From assembly GCF_036365525.1 (NCBI RefSeq), contig NC_090380.1:89606708-89670707 (forward strand): DNA of 64,000 bases. The letters are read 5' to 3'. The position numbers and the translations under genes were made by a program. Below the pieces are notes generated by a model. That model did no database searches. It was not told the DNA's origin and saw nothing but the letters and a program-made list of their open reading frames with translations. Below, piece after piece: positions 7,764-43,799 of the stretch (its first letter is position 1; each line of letters begins with the position of its first letter). The DNA comes from Heterodontus francisci (Eukaryota).

Positions 7764-7941
7764 CTGAGTTCCAGTCCCGGTCCTGTTGCTGCTCCTCCTC
7801 CTCATCCGCTCCAGGCAACGCGGCACCGACACTGAGCCCGGGAGCACATTCCACACAAAGCGCCCTGCCACCACCTCCAACTTTATAAATCGGGAACAGG
7901 AGCAAAGAGGTCAGCAGTAAGTCTCGGGGTCGCGCAGGCAT
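7764..7941 (-). CDS. Probable first coding exon of an unidentified minus-strand gene, signal-peptide-like
   Basis: ATG at 7941 gives MPARPRDLLLTSLLLFPIYKVGGGGRALCVECAPGLSVGAALPGADEEEEQQQDRDWNS, then CAG|GTACTG donor (178 nt, phase 1); CpG-rich, repeat-free context. No further exons were identified in 1-7763. Confidence 0.5.
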
Positions 7942-11900: not shown

Positions 11901-12239
11901 ATTTCTACTGCTGTTTTTATAGCTTCTCTGAACCCATCTTTTCTTTATTTGGCCCATTATCACCTTCTTTTGCCTTGTACCATCATCCCTTTTGTCATTT
12001 AATCACTCCTACTCTCCATCCTACAGTTTTCGTTCTTTCGCACTCCCTAATTCTGACTCAGCAATCGTTTAAAAGCTGATATAAGCAAAAGTTTCTCTGA
12101 ATTTGCCCCTCTAGTGCGAATCCATTCAGTCAAACGGATGTCTGTCCTGCTTTATTCTTGCTAAATTCCTGAAAAGTCACGAGCACCTTTGACAGTGTCT
12201 GCCCTGTATAATTAATTAATTAATCAGCAATTTTCGAAG

Positions 12240-12480
12240 TGTAGGTGTATCTTTCGCACAAGCTGATTACAAAGTCTTCTTAGTATATTGGCAAGTGGTG
12301 AATTTGGAGTTCCGGTTAAAAGGACTGACGAGTATCCAATAGAAAGAGCTTAGGGGATGTGTGCGGCGACGGTATTGGGTGAAATTGACGAAGCCCCGCC
12401 CGCGCGGCAATTTCCATTTTGTTACATTGCAGCCAGAGGACGGAAAGGTTTTAGTGAATCTACCGCGAAGTCAGTCATTT
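12240..12480 (+). promoter_or_regulatory. CpG-rich promoter of the Cut8-like gene
   Basis: ATTGG 12287, CCAAT 12336, ATTGG 12374, GC box CCCCGCCC ~12394, E2F-like CGCGCGGCAA ~12401; non-repetitive sequence. Confidence 0.55.
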
Positions 12481-12766
12481 AGTGCAGTGCAGTCCAGTCA
12501 GGTGGATAGCAAAGACTCGGGCTGAGGGAAGGGAACAGGGGGGGAAAAAGATACAGCACCAGATTGCAACATCAGTCAGTGAACATTTATGGGAAAAAAC
12601 TTCCATCCTCTTTATCCCGTGCAATTTACAAGACGAAATCACTCATTTAGCAGGAAAACTGAGTCCGAATCCAGGAGCTTTTAATAGTTCCAAGATTCCC
12701 CCCCTCCCTCAAAATAAGTAGACTTTTGGGTAATTTAGTTTAGTTTTATATTCTATATATTTGTTA

Positions 12767-12833
12767 ATGGCTCCTGCTGTAAACCTGAGGCAAGTTCTGG
12801 TGGAAATTCCAAACCCGCAGCCTAAGATTGCTG
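12767..12833 (+). CDS. Cut8/Sts1-domain protein, exon 1 (MAPAVNLRQVLVEIPNPQPKIA)
   Basis: ATG 12767 with +4 G; strong donor G|GTGAGT; 67 nt, phase 1, joins exon 2 in frame. Confidence 0.72.
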
Positions 12834-13756
12834 GTGAGTAAAAACCCAGTTTTAAATAGACGCGGAAAAAATAAGGCGCTTAACTGAGACGAGGCGATGG
12901 GGGAGGGAAGGGGAGTGCAGTCGTTTGCCAGTTTAAAAAATACTGAAAGTCAATATAACGGTAATATACACAAAGTATTGCATCTGTGAAGTTAAACTAT
13001 CGATCTGTGTTGTTCTTGTCAGAAAAAGCTGAGTTATGTGCTTTAAGGAGATAGTCGTTTTACCGTGGTATTGGCGGGCAGATGAGAAAGCGGTTTTCGC
13101 CATCCTGCATATGCATACAAAATGTATCTTTTTAAACTTAAAATTAGAAAATATTGTGGGGGTAATCCAAGTAAATAAACCTAATGTATAAAGTTGATTT
13201 ATTAATTAGAAACAAATTGAGGGCATAGTTCACTATCGTAGGAAATCGAATTTGCAGTAGGCGCCAAACGTGAGCCAGCAATTAAAGGGTGTCATTAGTT
13301 TACCATCATAAAATACAAATTTTATTGTTCTGACAGATATTTAAATGTATAGTGTATTGATCAATAATCAATACAATGTATTTTATAGTGTAAAAACAAA
13401 ATGCATAACTAATAATGACTACATACAAAAGTAAAGTACTGCAGTTGCTGGAAGTGCTCAGCAGGTCAGGTAGCATCTGTGGAGAGAAAGTTACCAGATA
13501 TGATCTGATCGAGAAATTTTGGGAACAAATAAAACGAAGTACAGAAATTTATTCTTTCTACCTTATCCATGAATGTGGTGTGATTTTTTTTTTTAAAAAT
13601 CCAAACCCTAAAGCTAACCTTTTAGACATGTCATGAGACCCCTGTTGGCCAGTCTCTTCACCTTCGGCTTCATTGCGTGCCTGGTTAAATAAATGATAGC
13701 CACATTTATAATGGATTTTAAACTTCAAGTAATACAAAAATCAGCTCAAATCCAAT

Positions 13757-14890
13757 TGAGCCAATTGCCACCCCATCAGTCCACACACAATTATCAGCAA
13801 AGTGATGGAAGGTGTTGTCTCCAAATGACTTCAGACCCACAGCAATGTGGTTGACTCTTAAATGGCCTAGCAAACCATTCTCAGTTCAAGGGCAATTAGG
13901 GATGGGCAATAAATGCTGGCCTAGCCAGCGATGCCCACATTCCACAAACAAACAAATAAAAAAATTGGTGGTGGGGCAGTACTCTCCACTGGCTGGAGTC
14001 ATACCTGATTGTTGGAGGCCAGTCAGAAAGCTTTGCAGGTTCGTGTCCTACACCCAACCATTCTTCAGCTGCTGCCTCAATGATCTTCCCTCCATCATGA
14101 GGTCAGAAGTGGAGACATATGCTGATGATTGCAATGTTCAATTCCTTTCACAACTCCTCAGATAATGAAGCATGACCTGGACAACATTCAGGCTTGTGCT
14201 GATAAGTGGCAAGTAACATTAACATTCGTGCTATACAAGTGGCAGCTAATCGGCATCTCCAATAGGAGTCTAACCATTTTCCCTTGACATTCAACAGTAC
14301 TACCATTGCCAAATCCACCCCCCCCCCTCAACCATCAACATCCTAGGGGTCACCATTGATCTGAAACTTAACTGGATGAACCCCATAAATACTGTGGCTA
14401 CAAGAACAGGTCAGAGGCTGGGTATTCTGTGAAGAGTAACCCCCTCTCCACTCCCACCATTTACATGTCGTAAGTTAGCAGAGTGATGGAAAACTCCCCA
14501 CTAGCCTGGATGAGTGTAGCCCTAACAACACTTAAGCTTGACACCCATCCAGAACAAAGCTGGCCACTTGTTCGATACCCCATTCACCACCTTAAATATT
14601 CACTCCCTCCACCACCGGTGTACTGTGGCTGCAGTGTGTACCATCTATAAGATGGACTACAGCAACCCACCAAGACTTCTGCAATGGCATCTTCCGAACC
14701 CACAAGTTCTACTGCCAAGAAGAACATGGGCAGCAGGCAAGTGGAAATGCTGCCACCTACAAATTCCTTTCCAAGCCACACACCATCAGACTTGGAACTA
14801 TATCGCCGCTCTTTCTTCATCGTTGGGCCAAAATCCTGGAACTCCCTTCTCAGCAGCACTGTGGATGTACTTGCGCCACGTGGACTGCAG
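13757..14890 (+). mobile_element. CR1-group LINE fragment (second family) with nested SINE tail
   Basis: LNDLPSIMRSEVETYADDC RT motif; SLHHRCTVAAVCTIYKM; same family as 58143-59050. Confidence 0.8.
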
Positions 14891-15306
14891 CAATTTACAA
14901 ATTATTATGGATTTTGTTTCACTGCCTCTGGTAGGGGATTCCATGTCCTATCAATTTCAAATATTCAGCTTTTTTGATTATCTTAACTTGTACCCTGTAT
15001 GAAAGAAATATTTCTACTTTGCAAAATTCACTTAAAAACACAACTGGTGTTTATAAGGCAGTACATAGTGTAAGTGCTTATGGTAGTATATAGCGTAGTG
15101 AACAAAATATACTTCTTTAAAAATCTTTTTTTAATCCTCCTGGACCAAACATATGCCACAGTAGATGACTGCAGGGATGCTTGGTTGTCCCTTTGACATG
15201 TGCATTTGCCTTTGAAATAATGGAAGCAAAATAACTTGCAGGTGCTGTCACATAAATAAGCCAAAATTCTGTTGAATAATGTTTAAAATACCTTTTGTCC
15301 CTTCAG

Positions 15307-15459
15307 TCCACCTGCGCAGGTCCTATGAAGATATTCTGAATTCTACAAGAACACCGTCACAGTTAACAACACTTCATGTCAATATTCCAACGTCTTTCCG
15401 AAGAACAGACAACATCTCATCAGATGATTGTTTCGTTCAAAATCTGAATGTTACGCCAG
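15307..15459 (+). CDS. Cut8/Sts1-domain protein, exon 2
   Basis: Acceptor TTTTGTCCCTTCAG|, donor CAG|GTCTGT; 153 nt open, phase 1/1 (VHLRRSYEDILNSTRTPSQL...NLNVTP). Confidence 0.68.
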
Positions 15460-15699
15460 GTCTGTTTGTGTGTGTGTGTGTATTTTCCTCATAGTATAAT
15501 GATTAATAAGGCATCAGCCATCTTCATCCCATTTTTCTTTTAAGAAATTTAAAGAGGAATTGGGCTATTCTAATGCCTCTCTTGGGTTGTCACCAGGAGT
15601 ACAATAACAATCTGGCAGAGATGGGGAGTTCATCCCTTTTTCCACTCCCACTATCTGGTGAGATGGGGAGTTCAACAGAGTTGAAAGTTAACCTGTATT

Positions 15700-16225
15700 G
15701 GGCTACTTAGCACTCTGTAGGTACCACAAGTACAGGAGTAGGCCATTTAGCCCCTCAAGCCCAGGGTGCAGCTCCGACAACACAAGAAGCTCAACACTAT
15801 CCAGGACAAAGAAGCCTGCTTGATTGGCACCCCATCCACTACCTTCAACATTCACTCCCTTCACCACTGATGTACAGTGGCAGCAGTGTGTACCAGCTAC
15901 AAGATGCACTGCAGAAACTCACCAAGCCTTCTTCGATAGCACCTTCCAAACCCATGACCTCTACCATCTAGAAGTACAAGGGCAGCAGATGCATGCAGAC
16001 ACCACCACCTGCCGGTTCCCCTCCAAGCCGTACACCATCCTGACTTGGAACTATATTACCATTCCTTCACTGTTACTGGGTCAACATACTGGAACTCCCT
16101 TCCTAACAGCAGTGTACTTACACCCGAGGACTGCAGTGGTTCAAGAAGGAAGCTCACCACCACCTTCTCAAGGGCAATTAAGGATGGGCAACGACCATAT
16201 CCCTCAAACGAAAATTAAAAAAAAA
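15700..16225 (+). mobile_element. CR1-group 3' fragment (second family)
   Basis: ACTATCCAGGACAAAG..TTGATTGGCACCCCATCC and CACCACCTTCTCAAGGGCAATTA tail. Confidence 0.8.
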
Positions 16226-16736
16226 AGTCTGCTCCACCATCCACTGAGATCATGGCTGATCTGACTGAACTCCATATACCAGCCTTTGCACCATGTTCCT
16301 TAATAGAATTGTGTTAACCAAAGCTATCATATTCATTTTAAATTAACAATTCATATAGCATCAATTATTGTTTCCGGAAAACTTACAAACTTCTACCACC
16401 CTTTGTGCGTAGAAGTACTTCTTAATTTTACTCCTGAAAGGTTGGGCTCCAATTTTTAGACTATGCCCACCAGCCCTAGACTCCCCCAGCCAGTAGAAAT
16501 AGTTTCTACCTACTAGTATCTGTTCCCCTTAATATCTTACACTTCGATCAAATCACCCAACTACTTCTAAATTTCAGGGAATACAGCACTAGTTTGTATA
16601 ATCTCTCCTTGCAATTTAACCCTTGGAGTCCAGGTATCATTCTAGTAAACCTATGTTGCACGCATTCCAAGTACAAAATATCCTTCCTAAGGTGTGCCCA
16701 GAACTACTCCAGGTATGGCCTAACCAGGGGTTTGTG

Positions 16737-18955
16737 TAAGAACATACAAACATATAAATTAGGAGTAGGCCACTCGGCCCCTCGAGCCTGCTCTGCCATT
16801 CAATAAGTTCATGGCTGAACTGATTGCTCCACATTTCCACCTACCCCCGATAATCTTCCACTCCCTTGCTTATTAAGAATCTATCTACCTCTGCCTTAAA
16901 AATATTCAAAGACTCTGCTTCCACTGCCTTTTGTGGAAGAGAATTCCAAAGACTCTCAACCCTCTGAGAAAAGATTTATCTTCATCTCTATCTTAAATGG
17001 GCGACCCTTTATTTGTAAACAGTGACTCTTAGATTCTAGATTCTCCCACAAGGGGAAACATCCTACCCACCTCCATCCTGTCAAGACCCCTCCGGATCTT
17101 GTATGTTTCAATCAAGTCACCTCTTCCTCTTCTAAATTCCAGCCGATACAAGCCTAGTCTGACCAATCTTTCCTTGTAAGACAGCCCGCTCATTCAAGTT
17201 ATTAGTCTAGTAAACCTTCTCTGTACTGCCTCCAATGCATTTACATCCTTAAATAAAGAGACCAGCACTGTACACAGTACTCCAGATGTGGTCTCACCAA
17301 TGCCCTGTACGGTTGAAGCATAACCTCCCTACTTTTGCATTCAATTCCCCTTGTGATAAATGATATTTTATTAGCTTTCCTAATTACATGCTGTACCTGC
17401 ATACTAACCTTTTGTGATTCATGCACCAAGACACCCAAATCCCTCTGCATCTCGGAGCTCTGCAATTTCTCATCATTTAGATAATATGGTTCTTTTTTTA
17501 TTCTTCCTACCAAAGTGGACGATTTCCCACTTTCCCACATTATACTCCATTTGCCAGGTCTTTGCCCACTCACTTAACTTATCTATATCCCTTTGTAGTC
17601 ACCTTATGTCCTTCACAAGTTACTTTCCTACCTATCTTTGTGTCATCAGCAAATTTAGCAACCATACCTTAGGTCCCTTCATCTAAGTCATTTATATAAA
17701 TGGTAAAATGTTCAGGTCCTAGCACAGATCCCTGTGGCACACCACTCGTTGCATCTTGCCAACCAGAAAATGACCCATTTATGTCTACTCCCTGTTTCCT
17801 GTTAGCTAGCCAATTTTCAATCCATGCCAATATGTTACCCCCTACATCATGAGCTTTTATTTTCTGCAATAAACTCTGATGTGGCACCTTATCAAATGCC
17901 TTCTGGAAATCTAAGTACAATACATCCACCGGGTTGCCTTTATCCACAGCACATGTTGTTACTTCAAAGAACTCCAATAAATTGGTTAAACATGATTTCC
18001 CTTTCACAAAACCATGTTGACTCTGCCTGATTACCGTGAATTTTTCTAAATGCCCTGCTATACTGTCTTTAATAGCTTCCAACATTTTCCCTAAGTCAGA
18101 TGTTAAGCTATTGAGCCTGTAGTTTCCTGCTTTCTGCCTCCCTCATGTTTGAATAAAGGAGTTACATTCACTATTTTCCAATCTAACGGAACCTTCCCTG
18201 AATCTAGGGAATTTTGGAAAATTAAAACTAATGCATCAACTATCTCACTAGCCACTTCTTTTAAGACCCTCGGATGAAGTCCATCAGCCACAGCTCCAAC
18301 AATTTGTTCAGTACCGCTTTCTTGGTGATTGTAATTTTCTTGAGTTCCTCCCTCCCTTCCATTTCCTGACTTACAGCTAATACTGGGATGTTACTTGTAT
18401 CCTCAATAGTGAAGGTCCGATGCAAAATACCTGTTCATTTCATTTGCCATCTCCTTATTATCCATTATTAATTCCCCAGCCTCACTTTCTATAGGACCAA
18501 CGCTCACTTTAACTCTTTTCTTTCTTTTTAAAACATAGAAACTCTTACTATCTGTCTTTATATTTCTAGCTAGTTTTCTCTTGTACTCTAATTTTACTTT
18601 CCTTATCAATCTTAGTCATTCTTTGCTGTTTTTTATATTCTGTCCAATCTTCTGACCTGCCTCCCATCTTTGCGCAATTATAGGCTTTTTCTTTAAGTTT
18701 GATACTATCTTTAACTGTTTTAGTTAACCACGGATGGCGGGTCCCACCCTTGGAATTTTTCTTTCTCATTGAAATGTATTTATTCTGTGTATTCTGAAAT
18801 ATCCCCTTAAATGTCTGCCACTGCATCTCTATTGACCTATCCTTTAACCTGATTTGCCAGTTCACTTTAGCTAGCTCTGCTTTCATGCCCTCATAATTGC
18901 CCTTATTTAAGTTTAAAATACTAGTCTTGGACCCACTCTTCTCTCCCTCAAGCTG
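16737..18955 (-). mobile_element. CR1 LINE (2.2 kb) nested in an older CR1 (16226-19110)
   Basis: [57 protein letters not shown]; the older CR1 resumes after ~18955. Confidence 0.9.
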
Positions 18956-19109
18956 AAGCAAGACTTCCACCTCCTTGTATTCTCATCCTCTAGGTATAGA
19001 GGCCAGCATTCTATTAGCCTTTTCGATTCTTTCATGTACCTGTTCATGACATTTTAATGATCCAGGACACCCAAGTCTCTTTGGAGCTCCACTGTTTCTA
19101 GCTTTTCAA

Positions 19110-20015
19110 TGAAGGAATTGTGCTATATTTTCAAGTCAAGATGGTGTGTCAGTTGGAGGGGAACTTGCAGGTGGTGGTGTTCCCATGCACTTGCTACCCT
19201 TGTCCTTCTAGGGGGGAGAGGTCGTGGGTTTGGGAGTTGCTGTCAAAGAAGCCTTGGCAGGTTGAAGTGCATCTTGTAGATGGTATACATGCAGCCATGA
19301 TATCCCGATGGTGGACGAGTGAATCTTGAGTGTTGGAAATGTGCTCATCCAGGCAAGTGGAGAGTGTTCCATCACACTCCTGAATTGTTCCTTGCAGATG
19401 GTGGCAGGCTTTGCAGAATCAGGTGCTGAGTCACTCGCCGCAGAAGTCCCAACCTCTGACCTGCTCTTGTAGCCAGAGTATTTAAATGGCTGGTCCAGTT
19501 AAGCTTCTGGTTAGTGATGACCCCCAGGATGTTGATGGTATTTGGCAATGGTAATGCTATAGAACATCAAGGGAAGGTGGTTAGTCACTTTCTTGTTGGG
19601 TATGGTCATTGCCCATTGCTTGTGTGGCACAAATGTTACTTGCCACTTATCAACCCATGCCTGAATGTTCAGGTTTTGCTGCCTGCAGGCACAGACTACT
19701 TAATTATGAAGAGTTGCAAGCAAAATTGAATATTGTGCAATCATCAGCGAACATTCCCATTTCTGACCTTTTGATGATGGAGGGAAGGTAATTGATGAGG
19801 CAGCTGCAGGGATTTCCTGGGGCTGAGATGATTGGCCTCCAACAACCACAACAATTTTCCTTTGTGCTGGGTATGACTTCCACCAGTGGAGAGTTTTCCC
19901 CAAATTCCCATTGATTTAAATTTTACAAGGGCTTCTTGACATACTCTGTCAAATGCTGCCTTGATGTAAAGGACAATTACTCCCACCTCACCTATGGAGT
20001 TCAGCTATTTTGTCC
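19110..20015 (-). mobile_element. CR1-group fragment (second family)
   Basis: Minus-strand IKAAFDRVCQEALVKFKSMGI and KIVVVVGGQSSQPQEI. Confidence 0.75.
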
Positions 20016-20017
20016 AT

Positions 20018-20346
20018 AGTCATGGAGAGATACAGCACTGAAACAGGCCCTTCAGCCCACTGAGTCTGTGCCAACAAACAACCATCCATTTATACTAATC
20101 CTACATTAATCCCATATTCCCTACCACATCCCCACCATTCTCCTACCACCTACCTACACTAGGGGCAATTTACAATGGCCAATTTACCTATCAACCTGCA
20201 AGTTTTTGGCTGTGGGAGGAAACCAGAGCACCTGGCGGAACCCACGCGGTCACAGGGAGAACTTGCAAACTCCGCACAGGCTGTACCCAGAACCAAACCC
20301 AGGACGCTGGAGCTGTGAGGCTGCGGTGCTAACCACTGTGCCGCCC
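20018..20346 (-). mobile_element. HE1-type V-SINE, near full length
   Basis: Reverse complement of the 35104-35445 element. Confidence 0.9.
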
Positions 20347-20747
20347 ATGTTTGGACTATGGCCGTAGAATGGAGCTTGAACCTATAACCCTACTGACTTA
20401 GAATCGAGAGTGCGTTCGCTGAGTTGAGGTCCAGAATGATCTTCCTGGCCAAATTTATAGCAAAAGTTGTAACTTCAAGCCAAGCATTTAAGATAATACC
20501 ATTTTTCTGATTTGCTATTCATGAATTGCTTAGTCCAGGTCCTTGCTGGAGGACCAATAAAACTGCTACAACTGTAGTAGGTAGACTGAAGTTATCGACA
20601 GCTCCTGTGGTTATTTGGTTAATAGGTAGGAGCTCTGAAACCTTGCACTCTCATACCATCTTTGCTTATACTTGACTGTCAGTAGCCATTAGCTGTTATC
20701 TATCTTGTCATTTTGCTGTAAGTACATTTTAGTTTTCCTTTCAACAG

Positions 20748-20870
20748 AAAATATTTCTGAAGTCTCATCTTTTGTCAGAAGAAAATTTGGAAACGGAAGA
20801 AGATTGTGCTTCAGTTCACCAGCAGCTTCCAACTATCAGACAAAAACATTGCAAAATGGTAACGAGAAAG
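20748..20870 (+). CDS. Cut8/Sts1-domain protein, exon 3
   Basis: Acceptor TTTTCCTTTCAACAG|; 123 nt open (ENISEVSSFVRRKFGNGRRLCFSSPAASNYQTKTLQNGNEK); donor AAG|GTGTGT. An alternative in-frame donor ATG|GTAACG lies at 20858. Confidence 0.7.
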
Positions 20871-21253
20871 GTGTGTGAGATGGCATATAATACAAGCCTG
20901 AGTATTTCCCAGTGTTTACTTTGCATCCAAATCCAGATCATTTAGAATTTAGTGTTGGAGATCATTGTCCTCCGTGGGTGCAGATGCTATACAGTTGTCT
21001 TCATTTTCATATATGATTGACAGTTAAGTATGACTTGTGAAATGCTGTTTCTTACTTCCAAGGCAAGACATCTGTGCAGTGCTGGTGATTCCTTTGCTAT
21101 GCCAACTGTCAGTAAAGCAAATGCACACAACTAAAGCATTACAATAGAATTCCGAGAATAGTTTTGTAATGTTGGAAAATGATGACAACTGCCATAAAAA
21201 GCAAAACATTTCCATGAAAGACAAAATTTAGCTCATTTCTTTTTCCTCCTTAG

Positions 21254-21384
21254 AACTGCCTTTCAAGAAACAGCGACTGAATTTTAAGCCAGGTTCAAAT
21301 TTAGAATTCAAACTGAATGACCTCGCGTCATCCCAGCTTGTGCGTACTCTTTTATTGCACAGATATCCAGAACTTGATGATGAG
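21254..21384 (+). CDS. Cut8/Sts1-domain protein, exon 4
   Basis: Acceptor TTTTCCTCCTTAG|, donor GAG|GTATGT; ELPFKKQRLNFKPGSNLEFKLNDLASSQLVRTLLLHRYPELDDE; phase 1 to 0. Confidence 0.82.
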
Positions 21385-21439
21385 GTATGTACTTGCGTTA
21401 CAACAGTAATTTAATACTTCATAAACTTAATTTCTTACA

Positions 21440-21910
21440 TCTCAGATGGACTGGAGTCTGGTTCCTGAGATGAGAGGGTTATCCAATAATGAGAAGCTGA
21501 GTAAATTGGGTTTATATTCTCTGAAGCATAAAAAAAAATCTAATTGAAAGATACAAGATTCTGAAGGGGCTTGACACTGCGAGGTTATTTCCCCTGGCTA
21601 GGGAATCTAGAACACAGGTGCATTTGCAGAATAAGGGGACAATCATTTAGGATTGAGAAGAGGAAAACCTCTTCGCTGAAAAGGTTGTGAATCTTGGGAA
21701 TTCTGTACCCTAGAGGGTTGTAGATGATCCATCGTTGAGTATATTTCAGGCTGGGATAGATAGAGTTTTGGTTTCTCAGGGAATTGAGAGATATGGGGAG
21801 CAGGCAGGAAAGTGGAATTGAGGGAGAAGATCAGCCATGATATTGAATGACAGAGCAGGCTTGAAGCGCCATATCATCTAATCTTGCTCCTGTTTCTTGT
21901 GTTCTTATGA
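21440..21910 (+). mobile_element. CR1 3' fragment
   Basis: GGTTGTGAATCTTGGGAATTCT (RVVNLWNSL-like) and tail TCTTGTGTTCTTATG. Confidence 0.8.
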
Positions 21911-22021
21911 CCAATGCTTCCCTGTGGTAATTGTACCTTGACGAGATTTCAATTTACACCATGAATAAGGGTGTGTTTAGTTTGGAGATACGTCAAACTA
22001 TTATTTTTTTTCCTAAAACAG

Positions 22022-22183
22022 GACTTGAAATTGGTTCTTCCATCATTAAACTTGAAATTTGCTCAGGAACAGCTGGAGTTGAGTAAAATCAACATGTACC
22101 GATCAATACCTCGATGGCGCTTGGGTTCCAATAGAGATGCATACTGCTACCGAAAAGCACATGTCCATCTTCAGGCTTTTAAG
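22022..22183 (+). CDS. Cut8/Sts1-domain protein, exon 5
   Basis: Acceptor TTTTTTCCTAAAACAG|, donor AAG|GTTTGT; 162 nt DLKLVLPSLNLKFAQEQLELSKINMYRSIPRWRLGSNRDAYCYRKAHVHLQAFK. Confidence 0.85.
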
Positions 22184-22489
22184 GTTTGTGTTCTTCAACA
22201 AAATTGCTTTTAAACACTGAGTGGAAGGTCATCAAATGGGTTTGTTTTCTGTTCAATCTTCTACCTTTCTCTTTTTAAGTTACTAATATACTTCAATATA
22301 ATTTCACGGCTCCCATTAGCCTTCCGTACCTCGCTTATTTGTCAGCTCAGTAAGTGCAGCAGGCTATTTGATAGTAATGCTTAAATCTATTCTCATTACA
22401 TGCATGTTCTAGTCAAGGTCTGTGAATGATCAATGTAAAATCTTTATTTATTTTGAAACAAATCCTGAGGCCTGAGGATGTTGCATGAA

Positions 22490-22935
22490 CTGGGGAATTT
22501 GAGGAAAGATTGAATAGGCTAGAGTTGTTTTCTTTGGAACAGAGGAGGCTGCGGGGAGACCTAATTGAAGTGTATAAAATTGAGGGGTCTAGCTAGAGAG
22601 GATAGGAACGCCCTATTCCCCTTAGTTGAAGGGTCCATAACCAGGGGGTATAGGTTTAGGGCAAGAGGTAGGACATGTAGAGGGGATTTGAGGGGAATTT
22701 TTCTTCACCCAGAGGATGGTGAGGATTTGAAACTCACTACCTGAGAGGATGGTAGAAGGAGAAACCCACAACATTTAAAAAGTACTTGGATATGAACTTG
22801 AAGTGTTGTAACCTACAAGGCTACAGACCAAGAACTGGATACTGAGATTGGGCTGGATGGCTAATTGTTGGCCAGTGTGGACAGGACTGGATGAATGACC
22901 TCCTTCCATGTAGTAAATTTCTACGATTCTATGAA
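22490..22935 (+). mobile_element. CR1 3' fragment
   Basis: LFSLEQRRLRGDLIEVYKI-like sequence; TTCTACGATTCTATG tail. Confidence 0.8.
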
Positions 22936-24059
22936 ATGTAATGCTCCCAACTGTTTATAGATTTTATCTTAAATGTGTTGAGTTTTAATAAAAGGCTCAA
23001 TACTACTGCACTATGCATTTACTTACTAGGAAGGGATGTATTTACATTCTTGAAAAAATTTCTCTTCACAAGTGGGTATTGATAACATGAGTTTGGGTAT
23101 GGTTTGAATAGAGTTCTGGATTCCACTAAGGGAGCTGAGCTGACCACTACTAAACCTAGGGGGCAAATTTGGTCATCTGCTGTTGTGTGAAATGGGGTCA
23201 TGGCGAATCAGCAGTCTGCTTTACATTGTGCTCAATTTTCTTTTTCTGTTGAAGTTAATTGAAAAGATAGTTGTGTGTATTGTAAGAAGTTGCCTATTTG
23301 CTATGAGTCTATTTTGTACTACTGGTGGAAAAACATTCTCCCCACTGCCCATCTTTCAAGGTTTACAGGATAAATAACAGATGAGCAAGCCCATCATGGC
23401 ATCCAAAAGGACTTCAACTTTTTTTTTCTCTCACTGAAAATAAATCGCAATATCCAACTTTTTTTGCAGGGTTTTGCCTCCATTACCTTGCCTAGAATGT
23501 TGTTCCATGTTAACTTTGTATGAATAGCTTGCTTGCTTCAGTCCCCAAAACGTGTTTTTTACTGGTCTGCATCTATACACCCCCTTGTCCTGTCAAAGTC
23601 TACACTGAAGTAATATTCTGGATCTCCTTTTACATAACGTCATACTATCTTCTGGTCACTTCCTTTTGAAGGATTAAAAAGTTTAAATTTCTCCAGTCAT
23701 CCACAGCTTGAATGGCTTGGTCACTAGATGTGGCTTGTGCTCGCTATTAGGTTATATAGTTCAACATTCTATCTACTTTGTTGCTGTGCAGTGATTTGCC
23801 AGTTGACTACTGCTGTCTACTAAAAGCTTGCAATCTTTCATCCTCCCCCTTTGGCTATTTTAGTTATTAAATTTCATCTACATTGTTCTGCTTGCTTAAG
23901 AATTTTGTTAAACTATATTTTAGTTGCCTCCTCTGATTCAACAACGCCATTTGAGTTTGGTTGTACCTGTGAATCTGACTAACTGCAGAATTGAAGCCTC
24001 TACTATAAATTAGAAACAGCACAGGTCCAAACTCTCCCTCCCACCCGTACAAAAATCTT

Positions 24060-24665
24060 TAACTTCACCCCTGCCTCAGCTCATTTGCTGCTGAAACCCT
24101 CATTCACGTCTTAAGTTACCTCTAGACTTGACTATTCCAACACAGTCCTGACTGGTGTCTCATATTCTCTCTAAACTTGTCATCCAAAACACTACTGCCT
24201 GGGTTTTAACTCTCACTAAGTCCCGTGCCCCTAACACTGACCTACATTGGCTCCCAGTCAAGCAATGTCTTGATTTCAGAATTCTCATTCTTGTTTTCAA
24301 ATCCCTTTTATGGCCTTGTCCCTCCCTATCTCTGTAATCTCCTCCAGCCCCACAACCGTCCAAGATATCTGTGCCCCTCTAATTCTGGCCTCTTCCGCAT
24401 CCCTGATTTTAATCACTATCATTGATGGCTGTGCCTTAGCTACCTAGGCCCTAAACTGTGGAATACCCTCCCGATACCTCTCCACCTCCACCTTGTTTTC
24501 CTCCTTTTTAAGATGCTCCTGAAAACCTACCTCCTTGACTAAACATTTGGTCATCTGACCTAATATCTCCTTTTGTGGCTCGGTGTCATACTTTGTTTGA
24601 TGATGCTCCTGTGAAGTGCCTCGCGACGTTTTATTATGCTAAAGGCACTATGTAAAAGTTGTAAC
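24060..24665 (+). mobile_element. L2 LINE 3' fragment
   Basis: TSRLDYSN, DLHWLPVKQCLDFRILILVFKSL, LLKTYL and tail AAAGGCACTATGTAAA. Confidence 0.85.
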
Positions 24666-25131
24666 AAGTACCTGCAACCTACTAGGTTAAATCAACATCA
24701 ACTGTAATTCAAATTCAATATCTTTTAATACTTCCAAGACCCCTATCAACTGTTTTTTCCCTTGCTAATATTGTTAAAAGCGTTTCTTTTCAAAATTAAA
24801 AAATGAAGCACAAAAGTTGCTCCTTTTTGCTGTTGATGTATGCAAAGTTTAAGCATTTCCAATTATGAAGACTGGATGTTTCTGCAACTATTGTCTTTTT
24901 AACTTCAGTTTCCTTGGTCAGGAATTCATGAATGTGAAGGAGGAGAAATTAGGAACTATTTTTCTCTGCTTGTATAGTACCTTCTATCTGTTAAGCCCAG
25001 AGCATCCTGACCTAATGGAAAGATGCTGTCATGTACTACTGATGGGTCATGTGAAAATTCTGTGGATCAAGACAGAAGTGACTTTTTAGAATTTGTTAAT
25101 AATGCATATATTTTATTTTGTTGTCTTGCAG

Positions 25132-25358
25132 AAGATTTGCCTGGAACAAGGGAGACTATTATTGCAATCAGAGTGCTGGGAAACTGCATTAGACTATGTA
25201 CTAATTGCCTGGAGATATACAAGTGAACTTCCTCAGTGGGATAATAGCTTCCATAATGAATGCACGCAACAATGTTTCGCTGCTTTAGCTGTTCAGTGCA
25301 TAACTAGCTTGCAGAGAAGCTGTTTAGAATTGGAGAAGTATAAGCAACTTAAGAAACG
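25132..25358 (+). CDS. Cut8/Sts1-domain protein, exon 6
   Basis: Acceptor TTGTCTTGCAG|AAG, donor CG|GTACAT; 227 nt KICLEQGRLLLQSECWETALDYVLIAWRYTSELPQWDNSFHNECTQQCFAALAVQCITSLQRSCLELEKYKQLKK. Confidence 0.85.
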
Positions 25359-25859
25359 GTACATATCTATATGCTTTTTGTAATAAAATGTGCATTATAG
25401 ATTTATGTAAAAAGGGGATTTGAGTCTGGGGAGTTTCCTATCCAAAGTACTTTGCTGTACATTTGAAAATCAGCTATTAAAAATGTTGAGGGGTATTCTA
25501 AATGGCCAACTGATGATGCTTTCTCTGGGGTTAGTGACTTTGGAATGGCTTTCAGGTGGCCAGAAGCCCTGTATTCTATGGAGGTACTCTAGAACACATG
25601 GGTTCTTAACTTTTTGTTCTTGTTTTCTTTCTTGCTTTCCCTTTCCTGCCCCCTCTCCTCCTCCAGTAATGTCACTAAGCAAGTTAATGGGAATGCCTTG
25701 CATGACTAAATCAAAATTGAAGATGGACTTTTTTAAAATAATTTTTCAAATTCCTAATTTTCTTGTACTTTTTCTGCCAAATTTGCTCTTTATTTTTCCC
25801 CCTTACCAGAATATGGGTATTGAGATCCCTTGGGTACTTTGCTCTGGTTTGAACTTTGA

Positions 25860-28010
25860 CAGGCTCCTCGGGTGAAGGTGCTAAATTGGGGGAAGGCTAA
25901 TTCTAACAATATTAGGCAGGAACTGAAGAATTTAGATTGGGGGTGGCTGTTTGAGGGTAAATCAACATCTGACATGTGGGAGTCTTTCAAACTTCAGCTG
26001 ATTAGAATCCAGGACCAGCATGTTCCTGTGAGGAAGAAAGACAAGTTTGGCAAGTTTCGGGAAGCTTGGATAACACTGGATATTGTGAGCCTAGTCAAAA
26101 AGAAAAAGGAAGCATTTGTAAGGGCGGGAAGGCTAGGAACAGATGAAGCACTTGAGGAATATAAAGACAGTAGGAAGGAACTTAAGCAAGGAGTTAGGAG
26201 GGCTAAAAGGGGTCATGAAAAGTCATTGGCAAACAAGGCTTTTTATACATATATAAAGAGCAAGAGGGTAACCAGGGAAAGGGTCGGCCCACTCAAGGAC
26301 AGAGATGGGAATCGATGTGTGGAGCCAGAGGAAATGGGCGAGGTGCTAAATGAGTACTTTGCATCAGTATTCACCAAGGAGAAGGACTTGGTGGATGATG
26401 AGCCTAGGGAAAGGAGTGCAGATAGTCTCAGTCATCTCGTTATCAAAAAGGAGGTGTTGGGTGTCTTGCAAAGCATTAAGGTAGATAAGTCCCCAGGGCC
26501 TGATGGGATCTACCCCAGAATACTGAGGGAGGCAAGGGAAGAAATTGCTGGGGCCTTGACAGAAATCTTTGCATCATCATTGGCTACAGGTGAGATCCCA
26601 GAGGACTGGAAAATAGCCAATGTTGTTCCTTTGTTTAAGAAGGGTGGCAAGGATAATCCAGGAAATTATAGGCCGGTGAGCCTTACGTCAATGGTAGGGA
26701 AACTATTAGAGCGGATTCTTCGGGACAGGATTTACTCCCATTTGGAAACAAACGAACTTATTAGTGAGAGACAGCATGGTTTTGTGAAGGGGAGGTCGTG
26801 TCTTACTAATTTGATTGAGTTTTTTGAGGAAGTGACTAAGATGGTTGATGAGGGAAGGGCGGTGGATGTTGTCTATATGGACTTCAGTAAAGCCTTTGAC
26901 AAGGTCCCGCATGGCAGACTGGTGCAAAAGGTGAAGTCACATGGGATCAGAGGTGAGCTGGCAAGATGGATACAGAACTGGCTCAGTCACAGAAGACAGA
27001 GTAACAGTGGATGGGTGTTTTTCTGAATGGAGGGATGTGACTAGTGGTGTTCTGCAGGGATCAGTGCTGGGACCTTTGCTGTTTGTAGTATATATAAATG
27101 ATTTGGAGGAAAATGTAGCTGGTCTGATTAGTAAGTTTGCGGACGACACAAAGGTTGGTGGAGTTGCGGATAATGATGAGGATACAGCAGGATATAGATC
27201 GGTTAGAGACTTGGGCGGAGAAATGGCAGATGGAGTTTAATCCAGACAAATGTGAGGTAATGCATTTTGGAAGGTCTAATGCAGGTGGGAGGTATACAGT
27301 AAATGGCAGAACCCTTGGGAGTATTGACAGGCAGAGAGATCTGGGCGTACAGGTCCACAGGTCACTGAAAGTGGCAACGCAGGTGGATAAGGTAGTCAAG
27401 AAGGCATACAGCATGCTTGCCTTCATCGGTTGGGGCATAGAGTATAAAAATTGGCAAGTCATGTTGCAGCTGTACAGAACCTTAGTTAGGCCACACTTAG
27501 AATATTGCGTGCAATTCTGGTCGCCACACTACCAGAAGGACGTGGAGGCTTTATAGAGGGTACAGAGGAGGTTTACCAGGATGTTGCCTGGTCTGGAGGG
27601 CATTAGCAATGAGGAGAAGTTGGAAAAACTCGGATTGTTTTCACTGGGGCGACATGATAGAGGTTTACAATGTTATGAGTGGCATGGACAGAGTGGATAG
27701 TCAGAAGCTTTTTCCCAGGGTGGAAGAGTCAGTTACTAGGGGACATAGGTTTAAGGTGCGAGGGGATGTGCGAGGCAAGTTCTTTACACAGAGGGTGGTG
27801 AGTGCCTGGAACTTGCTGCCAGGGGAGGTGGTGGAAGCAGATACGATAGCGACATTTAAGAGACATCTTGACAAATACATGAATAGGGAGGGAATAGAGG
27901 GATATGGGCCCCGGAAGTGCAGAAGGTGTTAGTTTCGGCAGGCATCAGGATCGGTGCAGGCTTGGAGGGCCGAATGGCTTGTTCCTGTGCTGTACTGTTC
28001 TTTGTTCTTT
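25860..28010 (+). mobile_element. Young CR1 LINE, 5'-truncated, long RT reading frame
   Basis: 384 aa ORF 25872..27026 with [37 protein letters not shown]; then SKFADD and LEYCVQFWSP after frameshifts; TTCTTTGTTCTTT tail. Confidence 0.95.
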
Positions 28011-28339
28011 GATGCAAGAATTATCCAGCCCAATGCTACACATACCCTAATATTCACACTTCTGGTAGATGTTACTGAATTGTAATTTTTGTTCTCCAGA
28101 CTCCTGCCCCAGCCCAAACTCTGATGACTAAGGAACTTGGGCGTCTATCTTTTTTCTAATATAATAGGGATAGTGCTTTTTAAGGAAAATTGCCTGTCAC
28201 TACCTTGCCTTCTCCAATAAGTTTGTGTTGTGTATCTTGACGTATAACACATGAGCAAAGGGAACCTTCCTATTTCGAGTACAGTCTTGCATCTTTTTTT
28301 CTCTGAATCTATTGAATAAAACTTTCTCTTTCCCTGAAT

Positions 28340-28500
28340 GCTCAGTTGGAAAGTTCACTGAGCACAATAGAACTGAGCCACATAGACCAGGAAGCTTCTA
28401 AGTTCAATCTCTGTACTGAGCTGAGTTGCCTAATCTCAATTAGTGGCAGTAAGTTATTAGAACTTTCTCTAACCTGGGCTGGGGAGGGGAAAAATCAACC
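28340..28500 (+). mobile_element. LF-SINE-like ancient SINE head
   Basis: GCTCAGTTGG..CTGAGCCACATAGACCAGGAAG..GTTCAATC..GCTGAGTTG resembles the LF-SINE 5' region (from recall). Confidence 0.45.
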
Positions 28501-28619
28501 AGCGTTGGTATAAATGCAATATACTGTAAAAGCAAAGGATTGAGGCTGACTAACCCCATGGTTAAATACAGACTATTTCTCTGGAATCCTATATCAAAAA
28601 TGGCTACATAAGGGCTATA

Positions 28620-29970
28620 AAAACATCGTAGTAAACCATGTGGCCTGTCAAGCCTGCTCTGCCATTCACTATGATCATGGCTGATCTTTGGCTTCAACTC
28701 CACTTTCCTGCTTGCTCCCTAAATCCCTTGATTCCCTGAGACACTAAAAAATCTCCCTATCTTAGCCTTAAATGTATTCAATGATGGTACATCCACAGCC
28801 CTCTAGGGTAAAGAATTCCAAGATTCATAACCCTTTTGAGTGAAGAAATTTCTCATCTCCTAAACAATCAGCACCTGATCCTGAAACTGTCCACCCTTGT
28901 TCTAGATTCCCCAGCCAGAGGAAACAATGTCTGTTTCTACCCTGTCAAGCCCCTTCATAATCTTGAATGTTTCAATGAGATCACCTCTCATTCTTAATGC
29001 CAGAGAATACAGACTCAATTTACTCAGCCTCTCATCATAGGACACCTCTCTCATTGCAGGGACCAATCTAATGAAATATGGAGACCAAAACTGCACAGTA
29101 TTCCAGGTGTGGTCTCACCAAAACCTTGTACAATTGTAGCAAGACTACTTTTTCTTGTACCCTAATCCCCTCGCAATAAAGTCCAACATGCAATTTTCTT
29201 AATTGCTTGCTCTACCTGCATGCTGTGTTCTTCGTTCGAGTACACCAAGTCTCTCTGAACATTAACATTTTCATGCCTTTTCAAAAGAAATTCTGCTTTT
29301 CAATGCTCACTACCAAAGTGAATAACCTCTCACTTTCCCCACATTATACTCCATCTGTTATCTTATTAGCCTGTCTATCTCTCTTTGCAGCTTCTGTGTC
29401 CTCCTCACAACTTGTATTTCCACCTAACTTTGTCTCGCAGCAAATTTAGATACATTACTCTGTCTCTTTGTCTAAGCCTTTAGAAAATATAAACAGGAGT
29501 AGGGCATTCAGTCCCTCAAGCCTGTTCTGCCATTCAATTAGATCATGTCTGATCTGCATCTTTGTCCATTTATCTGCTTTGGTTTCATTTTCCATAATAT
29601 CCTTATAACAAAAATCTTATCAACCTCAGTTTTGAAATTTTCAACTGATCTAGTCTCCATAGTTTTTTTTTGGTTGGTTGGGTGGAGGGTGGTGGTTCAG
29701 AGTGTGGGAGTGTAAAGTACATCCTGGCATTACCCCCTGAACAGCCTAGCTCTAATTTCAAGGTTATGCCCCGTTGATCTGGACAATCTAACCAGAGGAA
29801 ATGGCTTCCCTATAAAATTATTCAATCATCTTAAACACCTCCATTTACGTCACTACTTAATCATTTTTTTTTATGTTCAAGGGAATATAAACTTAGTCTA
29901 CACAACCTTTCCTCATAATTTAACCCTGTTAGTCCTGTATCATTGCTGGTGAATCTGCATTGCTCCCTCT
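28620..29970 (-). mobile_element. Two CR1 3' fragments
   Basis: QFWSPY, LSKLSLYSLALRMRGDLIETFKIMKG; second tail AGGAGTAGGGCATTCAG near 29495. Confidence 0.8.
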
Positions 29971-30811
29971 CTCCTATATGCATCATCTGTTTGAGTGTCA
30001 AAAGCCTTAGCTCCGAAAAAATGTATAAAGACATCTCTGAACAATTGAGAAAATCTACCAAAAAATGACCAATCAATTCAATTTTCCCCCTAATAGTTGG
30101 CTCCCTCTTATGTCTGTAACAGAATATATCTCATACTACACGTTTCACAGTGTAATAAACTTGTATATGGAATTGTTTTCTTTGAGAGAGTGAGAAGCAT
30201 TGTCCTGGGCTTCAGATCACTTCGGTTGGCATGTATGTACATGTGCTGACCACACCACTTTCTTATTCACTCACCACTACTACCAAATTGTGGATTATAC
30301 TGCATCTTGGAATGTTCTGGCAGAAATATACTCAGTTGATTGAAGAATGGGGCATGGCTGTAAATTTGACAGTCCACTGTAAATCAATGGCCATGACTAA
30401 TAAATCATGCATTAAATTGCATAATGCCTCTATTGATGTACCTTCCTAATGCCATGAGAGATTCACTCACTACTTTTTTTTAAAAAACATAGTTACTACA
30501 CTTTTGGTAAATTCATCTGAGTTTACTACAGCGCTATGCTAACATTGTGCTTAAAACAGAGGTCCACTAAGATGCAAGCGCCCTCTCAATCCTTTGCACA
30601 GTTCTTGTTCAAGAACTATCAGCAAGCATTTTGGCTAACTATTTTGGGGAAGCAGTCCTGATGTTGGTAGCACTGTAAGCTTGATCCATGCACTAAAAAG
30701 TTGAATAATTTAAGAAAGTGAGGACGAAGCATTGTTTCGCAATCTATTTCATTAATGAAAAAAAAAGCTAGACTTTCAGGCATGAAATAACAAACTGTTC
30801 TTCTCTTACAG

Positions 30812-30923
30812 ACTTAGAATTGCATATACACAGAGCAAATTAATCAAACCCTGCCTTGAAGAGTTGGATAAGATTATCGAGGTGCTGAAATGCAGCCCAC
30901 CAGAACAAAATCTGTCTTGTTAA
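30812..30923 (+). CDS. Cut8/Sts1-domain protein, exon 7 (terminal)
   Basis: Acceptor TTCTTCTCTTACAG|; phase 2 completes CG+A (R), then LRIAYTQSKLIKPCLEELDKIIEVLKCSPPEQNLSC-TAA. Confidence 0.78.
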
Positions 30924-32200
30924 TTATTTAAAATATTTGAGATTGTATCTTGAATAAGTCATCATGCAGGTTTGTCCATAGTAAGAAAATCCTAGTGGCT
31001 TAATGGCAAATGACAGCTGGATTTCCTACAGTTGCACAAAAACTACAAATTGACTTTTTTTGTAAGACTAGAGGTGTCCAAATTAGGGCATTCTTACTTG
31101 GGATCCAGTCTTGGACAACATATGGAAAGTTGGAACGGAAATTGAGATTAAAAGGTGGGCACTGGGAAATACATGGAGAAAACTCCAGTATATTTGGTTG
31201 GTGGAGAAAATTAGTAGTTACATCGTCTTAAAATTGCATTTTTGGGGAGCTTGTGACGTAAAATTAAACTAGTTCACTTTTTTTTTAAGAATAGCTTGTT
31301 TTAACAACTTAACATTAAAAATGGTGACTACAGATGGTTGTCCACAATTGTGGACAATTAGAATAATAGATCCTCTGACATTCTTTAAGATTTGTGCAAA
31401 TTTGGTACTGTTCATTTTGGAAATTTCTAAAGGCATCTTTTTTCCGTGGAAATAAGCCATTGTGTGAAGTTGAGTTTTTAAGGTTAGAATTGCACACGTT
31501 GATTGAAAATGTACTGCTTTTTATTTAATTCCATTTGTATTAAACTAAAAATTAAATGTTTAGATCATAGTAAGCAGGTAGAATTTGTAGTTATAATTGC
31601 AACAGGAGTAATTTAGTGCAATAGCAATATTAGTAATCTAATAATGGCAATTGCACTTTAACCTTGACCAAGTATGTTGGGTTTTCGATATAAAACTTAA
31701 ACATATTTGGGAATGAATTTTGACCAGTGTTGGGGATACTTTGCATGTATGTATTAAAGAAAAAAGTAATTGTCTATGGATTTCGTAAATGTATACATTT
31801 GTCTTGTGTTATGAGTAGTGCTCTTAATGTAATATTGAAATGGCGTACAATGCCGCAAATGACACAAAATGTCATTTCATGTCTGTCTTTTGTGAGTAAT
31901 TTGGTTATTTAGAATTTTTCCAAATAAAATGAAATTGGATTACAAAAGTATGATTTTTTTAAAAATGCACGTAACATTGGTAAATCATACAAACTCTTTA
32001 ATCTAATTTAAATGCAAACAATGCTTTGTAGAAATATTGCAAATGGATTAATTTGCAACGTTTCTATCATGCAGGATGTATGAAGGATTCTATGTTCTAG
32101 TGAAAATGATACTTTTAACATTGGGCAATTAATTTTTACAATGCATTTACAACCTGATGAAGGAAAAATGCAACTAATAAATTCAACAGCTCATTCCATA
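30924..32200 (+). other. Probable 3' UTR with poly(A) signals
   Basis: AT-rich stretch without recognisable repeats after the stop; AATAAA at 31923 and 32176. Confidence 0.55.
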
Positions 32201-40489: not shown

Positions 40490-40607
40490 CGTAAATCAAC
40501 ATGGGGCTTTACGACGGTTTGTTTTACTGACGACACTTGGTGTGAAAAAAATCTGGCGATCCGGTTTCCGGCAGCAGCTGGGGATAGACGTGGAGGCTGG
40601 GAGCGGA
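40490..40607 (+). promoter_or_regulatory. TBC1D23: TBC1D23 promoter/5' UTR (CpG-rich)
   Basis: CpG-dense; TGACG half-site near 40528; ETS-like CCGGTTTCCGG at 40561-40571. Confidence 0.55.
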
Positions 40608-40660
40608 ATGGCGGCGGCCGCCGAGGAGGCGCAGCTGGTACCGGGTGCTAACAGTAGCTG
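40608..40660 (+). CDS. TBC1D23: TBC1 domain family member 23, exon 1
   Basis: GGAATGG start; MAAAAEEAQLVPGANSS plus TG|GTGGGT; phase 2 joins exon 2 to give W-DKDL. Confidence 0.85.
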
Positions 40661-42259: not shown

Positions 42260-42920
42260 AAAAGACTTTCATTTATATAGTGTCTTTCCCAACCACTGGA
42301 TCACTCAAAGCACTTTACAGCCAATGAAATACTTTTGGAGCATCGCCACTGTTGTAATGTAGAAATGTGGCAGTCTATTTGCGCGCAGCAAGCTCCTACA
42401 AATATTGGCCAGGACGCCGGGGATAACACTCATACTTTTCTTCGAAATAGTGCCACGGGATCTTTTATATCTATTGGAGAGTGCGGATGAGGCCTCACTT
42501 TAACGTGTTATCCAAAGGGCAGCCCCTCTGGTGTGGAGCACTCACTCAGTTCTGCATTGGAGTGTCAGACTTGATTTTTGAAATAGTACCTTATCACATC
42601 TCAGAATGCTTCACTTAGAATGAATTACTTGGACATTCAATAACTTGTATGTATTGCAAGTCAGCAATGATCAGTTAGTTGATCTGTTTTTGGTGGTGGT
42701 TGAGGGAGAAATATTTATTCAGATCGAGTCTGCTTGTGGATCTTTAATATCTATGGCAGATGGGCCTTTATTTAACATTTCATCCAAAGGACAGCATCTC
42801 TAGCAATGCAGCACTTCCTCAATACTGCATTGGAATGTCGACATAATTTATCCATTCAGGCTACACATGGCATTTAAACCCACACCTTCTGAATTGGGCA
42901 AGAGTGCTCCCAACTGATAG
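42260..42920 (-). mobile_element. Two Deu-SINE fragments
   Basis: Reverse-complement matches to 9360-9820 (AATATTGGCCAGGAC, GGGATCTTTTA, CTGCATTGGA). Confidence 0.7.
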
Positions 42921-43765: not shown

Positions 43766-43799
43766 AAATATGCTATACAAATGTAAGTTATTTCCAGTT

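Follow-up and report, generated by a model that had tools for sequence, protein, structure and literature searches.

A spliced Cut8/Sts1-family gene with a conserved D-box-like N-terminus in the shark Heterodontus francisci

Introduction

Does a vertebrate genome carry an intact relative of the yeast proteasome-localisation factors Cut8 and Sts1, and if so, what might the protein do? The question is raised by a gene at positions 12767 to 30923 of a 64,000-nucleotide stretch of the Heterodontus francisci genome (RefSeq assembly GCF_036365525.1, contig NC_090380.1, positions 89,606,708 to 89,670,707 of the forward strand; the whole stretch is referred to here as the window), which a sequence-only reading had described as an intact gene for a nuclear proteasome tether. 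The S. pombe protein Cut8 is an anchor for proteasomes at the nuclear envelope, and its turnover depends on Rhp6, Ubr1 (PMC5674884) and the proteasome. Cut8 has been stated to be absent from higher eukaryotes (PMC4588042, 2015), a homologue to have been reported only in Drosophila (PMC10520889, 2023) and Sts1 to be without a vertebrate homologue (PMC12979645, 2026). We report how the shark gene is built and spliced, to which family and fold its product belongs, where relatives occur and which motifs are conserved; the gene is a real, spliced and conserved vertebrate member of a known family. The gene model itself is not new, and the novelty lies in the gap between the databases and the literature; new in this analysis is a disordered N-terminus, with a D-box-like degron and paired basic clusters, that is common to the animal members.

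Gene structure and transcripts

The gene lies on the forward strand and consists of seven exons with 975 coding nucleotides (nt), which specify 324 amino acids (aa) and a TAA stop without any internal stop. All six introns run from GT to AG, in phases 1, 1, 1, 0, 0 and 2, so the exon ends, the phases and the open reading frame of the sequence-only reading are reproduced in full. Because a TAA at 12731 closes the frame, no usable in-frame start precedes the ATG at 12767. The coding part of exon 1 (12767..12833, aa 1-23) is followed by exon 2 (15307..15459, aa 23-74), which encodes a conserved RRSY helix at aa 26-35 and then a disordered linker, and by the likewise disordered exon 3 (20748..20870, aa 74-115). 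Exon 4 (21254..21384, aa 115-158) contains the start of the Cut8 dimer-domain segment, and exon 5 (22022..22183, aa 159-212) covers the end of that segment and the start of a six-helix bundle, including aa 181-200, where conservation among fishes peaks (column conservation 0.92). The core of the bundle, with the LPxW....HN motif, is encoded by exon 6 (25132..25358, aa 213-288), and the last helices, a short tail and the stop by the coding part of exon 7 (30812..30923, aa 288-324). The translation is letter-for-letter identical to a database protein (P0002) that NCBI/UniRef names 'uncharacterized protein [Heterodontus francisci]' and that already bears the PF08559 tag.

Splicing is supported by assembled Logan contigs from 4 of 24 listed sequencing runs; that the runs derive from RNA is a program's guess, none being recorded as such, and contig depth is uninformative on tissue or expression level. 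The most complete contig (run X3, record 16), of 2159 nt with 0 other letters, spans window positions 12547 to 31865, with exon 1 at contig positions 1-286, exon 6 at 855-1082, and exon 7 together with 3' untranslated sequence at 1083-2139. The gap of 568 nt between exon 1 and exon 6 is the exact summed length of exons 2 to 5, and in a contig from another organism (run X8, record 22) the corresponding gap is 567 nt, equal to the 567 nt expected. The exons are thus joined at the predicted spacing in two runs, in which support for the junctions among exons 2 to 5 comes from length only. Exons 6 and 7 are also joined in run X1 (record 5), and run X12 contains exon 6 only. Exon 6, exon 5 and the Pfam Cut8 model, each searched against the genome, all matched this locus alone, which sets a lower bound of one copy. 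Two shorter proteins, P0006 (Pristiophorus, isoform X2) and P0010 (Narcine), are without the part encoded by exon 3, which suggests alternative splicing, in sharks and rays, of an exon that carries the first basic cluster and the RxL-like motif described below.

Family membership and fold

The assignment to the Cut8/Sts1 family is, in our judgement, practically certain. The shark protein scores 86.9 bits against the Pfam Cut8 model (PF08559; E 2e-24), far above the gathering cut-off of 26.2, with aa 110-309 aligned to profile positions 39-239 of 241, while all other families stay far from their cut-offs. Exon 6 alone exceeds the cut-off (E 3e-11), and exon 5 alone matches the model at E 6e-4. 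In searches of PDB, S. pombe Cut8 ranks first with the single shark sequence (weakly, E 0.021) and with a fish-only profile (again weakly, E 0.029), and a profile of 99 relatives, comprising fishes, invertebrates and a few unnamed proteins but no named fungal one, reaches it at E 5e-20, the next match standing at E 0.13. The latter alignment covers positions 35-234 of the Cut8 chain and includes the basic cluster, the dimer segment and the bundle, and the bundle residues kept between animals and S. pombe are distributed over the whole domain. A protein language-model search, used as a lead only, also placed Cut8 clusters on top, all with scores below 0.9.

The predicted structure leads to the same family. 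Two AlphaFold2 models, with a mean predicted local distance difference test (pLDDT) score of 69 and 74, combine a disordered N-terminal region of 135 aa with a confident helical C-terminal domain, in which pLDDT exceeds 90 across most of the six-helix bundle; disorder is predicted over most of aa 36-136. Cut8 chains occupy ranks 1 to 3 in Foldseek (E 1e-4 to 3e-4) and are its sole matches with E below 0.001, at a whole-length root-mean-square deviation of 15-18 Å that is probably due to an altered hinge angle of the dimer segment. In a VIA comparison with 48,161 chains, the first model superposes on the Cut8 bundle with Z 16.4 (2.1 Å over 139 aa), followed by designed repeats at 12.7, and the second with Z 17.3 (2.0 Å over 141 aa). 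The Cut8 domain recognised by the sequence-only reading therefore stands, with S. pombe Cut8 as the best match of both models and no better match to another family in the Pfam, PDB or fold searches; with spliced contigs joining the exons as well, none of the three outcomes that this reading had named as refuting it was observed.

The segment before the bundle, a putative counterpart of the three-helix dimer domain, can be aligned to Cut8 by sequence and is helical in the models, with pLDDT 43-79 over aa 131-160. A two-copy prediction of aa 126-318 gave a score of 0.00 with the alignment unused and the fold uncertain, and is evidence neither for nor against a dimer. Ray-finned orthologues (for example P0013, P0021, P0027 and P0035) have lost the H-P-x-L...P part that is retained from S. 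pombe through sharks, and in most of them the linker is shorter; dimerisation may therefore have changed in teleosts.

A conserved motif module in the disordered N-terminus

The part of the protein most informative on mechanism is a conserved N-terminal module, degron-like and resembling a nuclear localisation signal (NLS), which the sequence-only reading had missed. Exon 1 encodes, at 12788..12814 on the forward strand, the motif R8-x-x-L11-x-E13-I14-x-N16 followed by PQPK; we take the consensus of a destruction box (D-box) to be RxxLx[D/E/N][I/L/V], and on that basis call R8-x-x-L11-x-E13-I14 a D-box pattern. This motif, at aa 8-16 in a disordered region, is present in 115 of 120 jawed-vertebrate relatives, all fish proteins (shuffle mean 1.9). 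Exon 3 contributes the first basic cluster, RRLCF, at aa 91-95 (20798-20812), which is RxL-like and followed by S-P, and exon 4 the second, KKQR, at aa 119-122 (from 21265), located 28 aa from the first when measured from start to start. Both clusters occur in 50 of 80 proteins with a median spacing of 28 (range 7-98), a loose pattern that has no shuffle control.

Motif conservation outside jawed vertebrates was evaluated with 1000 shuffles on the 73 full-length proteins among 126, the remainder being partial or outside 280-450 aa; the representatives are separate 50%-identity clusters from several phyla. A D-box in the first 45 aa was detected in 29 of the 73 (shuffle mean 0.6, maximum 5), R[KR]RL in 49 (mean 1.1, maximum 6), a full S/T-P-x-K/R site in 67 (mean 25, maximum 38) and SP(D/E)ExxI in 45 (mean 0.04, maximum 1). 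The last of these motifs stands in invertebrate members where jawed vertebrates have PQPKI...RRSY, and the invertebrate proteins also have more sites of the type phosphorylated by cyclin-dependent kinase (CDK), whereas the D-box, the basic clusters and the borders of exon 6 are alike. These N-terminal motifs may be specific to animals, a suggestion drawn from a comparison confined to the relatives above.

Conservation is uneven along the protein. Relative to the shark, mean identity in ten cartilaginous fish is 0.93 for aa 1-35, 0.56 for the linker, 0.82 for the dimer segment and 0.83 for the bundle, and the corresponding values in nine ray-finned fish are 0.59, 0.09, 0.25 and 0.57. Across 46 diverse fishes, 25 of the 324 positions are invariant. 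At their C-termini the fish proteins differ from one another, and the commonest ending is found in 44 of 120.

Distribution and descent

The family is widespread in fishes and invertebrates. A search with a shark-based profile found 143 proteins; the 120 that were listed comprise 12 records from 11 species of cartilaginous fish, 97 named ray-finned records and 11 unnamed ones. The ray-finned members come from bichir, sturgeons, gar, bowfin, eels, salmonids, cyprinids, medaka relatives, killifish and pufferfish; Danio is absent from the names among the listed matches, although other cyprinids are present. A HMMER scan of 1.84 billion representatives gave 359 matches, of which 150 were listed and 28 of these looked up by name. 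Named members outside jawed vertebrates come from a coral (Acropora), a hemichordate (Ptychodera), a brachiopod (Lingula), a priapulid (Priapulus), annelids (Paralvinella, Owenia), molluscs (Patella, Solemya), a tick (Rhipicephalus), a fly (Stomoxys), amphioxus (Branchiostoma) and two lampreys (Petromyzon, Lampetra), and some of the Lingula, Acropora and Stomoxys proteins already carry the NCBI/UniRef name 'tethering factor for nuclear proteasome cut8/STS1'. These proteins and the Cut8-like protein of Drosophila are direct animal orthologues of the shark protein, with about 30-44% identity in the core. The sequence-only reading's picture of a little-studied retained copy holds for an intact shark gene, with the qualification that the gene already stood in NCBI with its Pfam tag and has many relatives. 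The statement that Sts1 is without a vertebrate homologue is wrong for fishes and may hold for mammals (PMC9218506).

No lobe-finned fish or tetrapod appeared among the 109 named of the 120 listed matches (143 found), nor in two further lists of 12 and 41 matches, the latter aimed at invertebrate names and returning almost only fish. In a quick tree, no unnamed row fell inside the 13-row clade of jawed vertebrates (Shimodaira-Hasegawa-like approximate likelihood ratio test, 100); this tree included 111 of 157 rows, 46 having been dropped for poor core coverage, both lamprey proteins among them. Judged from the matches listed and from those representatives, a minority, that have a name, a loss on the line to tetrapods is likely rather than proven.

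Evidence on descent comes from short non-fish fragments with a BLAST match, counted after 18 teleost-like rows had been removed by hand. In 11 of the 28 fragments the first residue is an acceptor-type Gln that falls exactly before shark K213, and R288 is where several of them stop or cease to match. These two positions are the borders of exon 6, and we therefore read the intron positions as common to shark and invertebrates, which fits vertical descent through animals. The lamprey proteins P0198 (Petromyzon) and P0231 (Lampetra) are without the stretch matching shark exon 5 and keep the final part of the bundle, and P0198 also keeps the D-box and the shark-like RRxYEDxL motif; the gap may reflect exon skipping, mis-annotation or a real loss. 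Taken as a whole, we regard the gene as a single-copy orthologue of yeast Cut8/Sts1, vertically inherited, which cartilaginous and ray-finned fishes have retained and lampreys have retained at least in part. Three environmental proteins (P0168, P0261 and P0269) are short Cut8-family members without the animal N-terminal motifs, the latter two above the Pfam cut-off; they possibly come from eukaryotes other than animals, in which case the family would not be confined to fungi and animals.

Proposed role and alternative explanations

We consider it somewhat probable, at roughly 60%, that the shark protein acts beside AKIRIN2 as a short-lived adaptor or anchor for proteasomes, one that depends on importin-alpha and whose abundance the cell cycle controls. 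The reading follows from the comparison with known systems, since the protein appears to retain each structural part of the Cut8/Sts1 design and to add a candidate degron of the type recognised by the anaphase-promoting complex/cyclosome (APC/C). As in S. pombe Cut8 (PDB 3Q5W/3Q5X), a disordered N-terminus with a basic cluster is followed by a putative dimer segment, the six-helix bundle and a short tail, although the shark N-terminus is longer (about 130 aa), lysine-poor and equipped with the D-box-like motif. In S. cerevisiae, Sts1 has an unstructured N-terminus followed by three-helix and six-helix domains, of which the six-helix bundle suffices for binding to the 26S proteasome; the disordered N-terminus holds the bipartite NLS that importin-alpha recognises, and degradation of Sts1 takes place in the nucleus (PMC10808114). 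Sts1 interacts with the lid subunit Rpn11 (PMC6532418, PMC4588042). The two basic clusters of the shark protein may be the counterpart of that bipartite signal. Sts1 differs in being degraded independently of ubiquitin and in being essential in a cell with closed mitosis, whereas the animal proteins have a candidate APC/C-type degron and coexist with akirins. AKIRIN2 would be alike in role, as an NLS-bearing and short-lived proteasome adaptor, but is unrelated in sequence and fold and binds the 20S alpha ring via a C-terminal SYVS tail; no SYVS ending is present in the shark protein or among the eight commonest C-termini of the 120 relatives.

In the proposed mechanism, the adaptor would concentrate 26S proteasomes inside the nucleus or at its envelope. 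The basic clusters (aa 91-94 and 119-122) would bind importin-alpha as a bipartite NLS with a long linker, the segment at aa 132-170 would, by homology, form a homodimer, and the bundle (aa 164-310), whose fold is well predicted, would bind the proteasome, probably on the lid side of the 19S particle as Sts1 does. The D-box, the RxL motif resembling a cyclin-docking site and the S/T-P sites would direct phosphorylation by CDK and destruction through APC/C at mitotic exit or in G1, and such control would time the action of the protein to dividing cells. The conserved degron suggests, at the level of motifs, a direct link between APC/C and proteasome localisation. The words 'tether' and 'proteasome-targeting route' in the sequence-only reading describe a role that we infer from work in yeast and fly.

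Several observations weigh against this interpretation. Identity between the shark protein and S. pombe Cut8 is only about 20%, with E values of 0.02-0.03 in the single-sequence and fish-only searches, and a common helical fold by itself demonstrates no function. The dimer segment is predicted with low to moderate confidence, is not among the residues superposed at 2 Å, and has decayed in ray-finned fish (identity 0.25), where the H-P-x-L part is gone. The motif patterns were written after the sequences had been seen, and the shuffles ignore kinship; the shark linker has three S/T-P sites, none of them a full CDK consensus, and the N-terminus, with one lysine in aa 1-60 and seven in aa 1-130, would make a poor ubiquitination tail. 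The genome also contains two akirin-like exons, one at L013:1471-1542 on the forward strand of contig C3, which matches human AKIRIN2 (E 4e-11), and one in L014 on contig C31. Given an AKIRIN2-like exon and no named lobe-finned or tetrapod member, the gene therefore looks dispensable in some vertebrates. Finally, full-text searches, whose coverage excludes most subscription papers, listed no experiments on vertebrate Cut8 members, nor any study of fish or shark Cut8 or of a D-box in the Cut8 family.

Among the alternatives, all of them unlikely, the most probable is that the animal branch has been repurposed into a cell-cycle nuclear protein (a substrate or inhibitor of APC/C and cyclin-CDK, or else a factor of the germline or early embryo), with a bundle that binds a partner other than the proteasome. 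The strong conservation across animals of the N-terminal module of D-box, RxL and S/T-P sites would fit such a change, as would the service of akirins in animal import, the decay of the dimer segment in teleosts while aa 1-35 are kept, and a promoter with three CCAAT boxes and an E2F-like site, seen in a scan without chance control. The sole animal member tested, that of Drosophila, still acts on proteasome localisation (PMC5748218), and the bundle residues shared by animals and S. pombe extend over the whole domain, both of which speak against such a change.

A shade less probable is that the shark protein, as a true orthologue, is a proteasome tether at the inner nuclear membrane, as has been proposed for Cut8 of S. 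pombe and Drosophila, with import left to AKIRIN2. The fly homologue brings proteasomes to the nuclear envelope (PMC5748218), and the presence of AKIRIN2 in the genome leaves room for such a division of labour; however, the conserved paired basic clusters and the degron fit a short-lived carrier, and a review disputes a scaffold role on the grounds of a very short half-life (PMC6532418). The decay of the dimer segment in teleosts and the uneven distribution also bring up a redundant remnant, weakly needed after a takeover by AKIRIN2 and decaying lineage by lineage, to which the missing exon-5 part of both lamprey records and the lack of lobe-finned and tetrapod names among the 109 named listed matches and the 41 matches would correspond. 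We find this quite improbable, given full-length intact proteins in more than 100 records of cartilaginous and ray-finned fish, the invariant positions in 46 fishes and spliced contigs from two organisms. Membership in the ZSWIM4/5/6/8 family, large SWIM-finger cullin adaptors of which Xenopus Zswim4 is annotated as having a cut8/STS1 domain that follows the SWIM finger (PMC10897318), and of which a ZSWIM8-TPR cluster appeared at 0.84 in the language-model search (a lead only), is largely refuted, whether as a fragment or a paralogue, by a complete 324-aa gene with start, stop and untranslated regions (UTRs), a Pfam scan that, up to E 1, matched neither SWIM nor ZSWIM families, stand-alone relatives of 250-410 aa of which several are named Cut8/STS1 by NCBI, a Pfam Cut8 model that finds only this locus in the genome, and Cut8 itself as the best structure and profile match.

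The adaptor reading can be extended to a more specific scenario, which we hold tentatively and at less than even odds: fishes would run AKIRIN2, acting on the 20S core, and a Cut8/Sts1 orthologue, acting on the 19S lid, side by side; APC/C itself, through a module of D-box, cyclin-docking and CDK sites gained by the animal Cut8 branch, would set when nuclear proteasomes are loaded or anchored around open mitosis; and the tetrapod line would have lost the lid arm. The nuclear entry of 19S particles is left open in a recent paper (PMC12979645), and a lid-binding adaptor in a vertebrate would be a test case for 19S import. If true, this scenario would make a lid-directed import route testable in cells of medaka, killifish, carp or salmon. 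The reach of these results is bounded by a Pfam label that already stood in the databases, by the fact that no human gene is involved and by a role that is deduced rather than observed. Work by Takeda in 2011 reportedly placed a membrane- or sterol-binding motif in the Cut8 bundle.

Promoter, untranslated regions and genomic neighbourhood

The gene starts in a CpG-enriched region (12001..13500), in which the observed-to-expected CpG ratio is 0.57-0.90 in 500-nt bins. Within 12287-12410, the motif scan mentioned above places CCAAT boxes at 12287, 12336 and 12374, a GC box at 12396 and the E2F-like site at 12404; this layout upstream of the transcript is frequent in cell-cycle genes and is also found in housekeeping promoters. 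The 5' UTR extends over at least 12547..12766 on the forward strand, as judged from the start of the X3 contig, and includes one upstream ATG at 12589. The 3' UTR of about 1 kb (30924..31928, forward strand) is covered by the same contig to 31865 and contains a candidate poly(A) signal, AATAAA, at 31923, identified by a hexamer scan; contigs cannot show the true transcript end.

The gene is flanked by an exon of FILIP1/FILIP1L type, located some 30 kb ahead of the window, and by TBC1D23. The former is a 972-aa open frame (L006:35-2950, about 27-30 kb before the window, forward strand) with a match to the CortBP2 family (E 5e-8), and it lies on the same strand as TBC1D23. The latter is recognised by an internal exon at about 55183-55374 on the forward strand that matches human TBC1D23 (E 5e-28), in a gene at 40600-55377 that continues to the right; a CpG-rich region near 40.6 kb is presumably its first exon. 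We assume that FILIP1L and TBC1D23 adjoin on human 3q12 without a Cut8-like gene between them and that human FILIP1L is on the strand opposite TBC1D23, an arrangement that would imply a local inversion relative to the shark. Short motifs of CMSS1 and TMEM30, two further genes expected nearby, gave no useful match across the window and the preceding 100 kb. On the reverse strand, 7765-7941 is a candidate first exon of another gene in a CpG-rich bin; its features are an ATG, a hydrophobic segment resembling a signal sequence, a run of acidic residues and a GT donor, and it had no PDB or Atlas match. Introns and flanks are filled with decayed copies of long interspersed nuclear element (LINE) type, such as those at 17241-18982 and 25860-27932 on the reverse strand and at 47628-49336 on the forward strand, which is ordinary for a shark genome; from their sequence features, we take these copies to be CR1-like and RTE-like.

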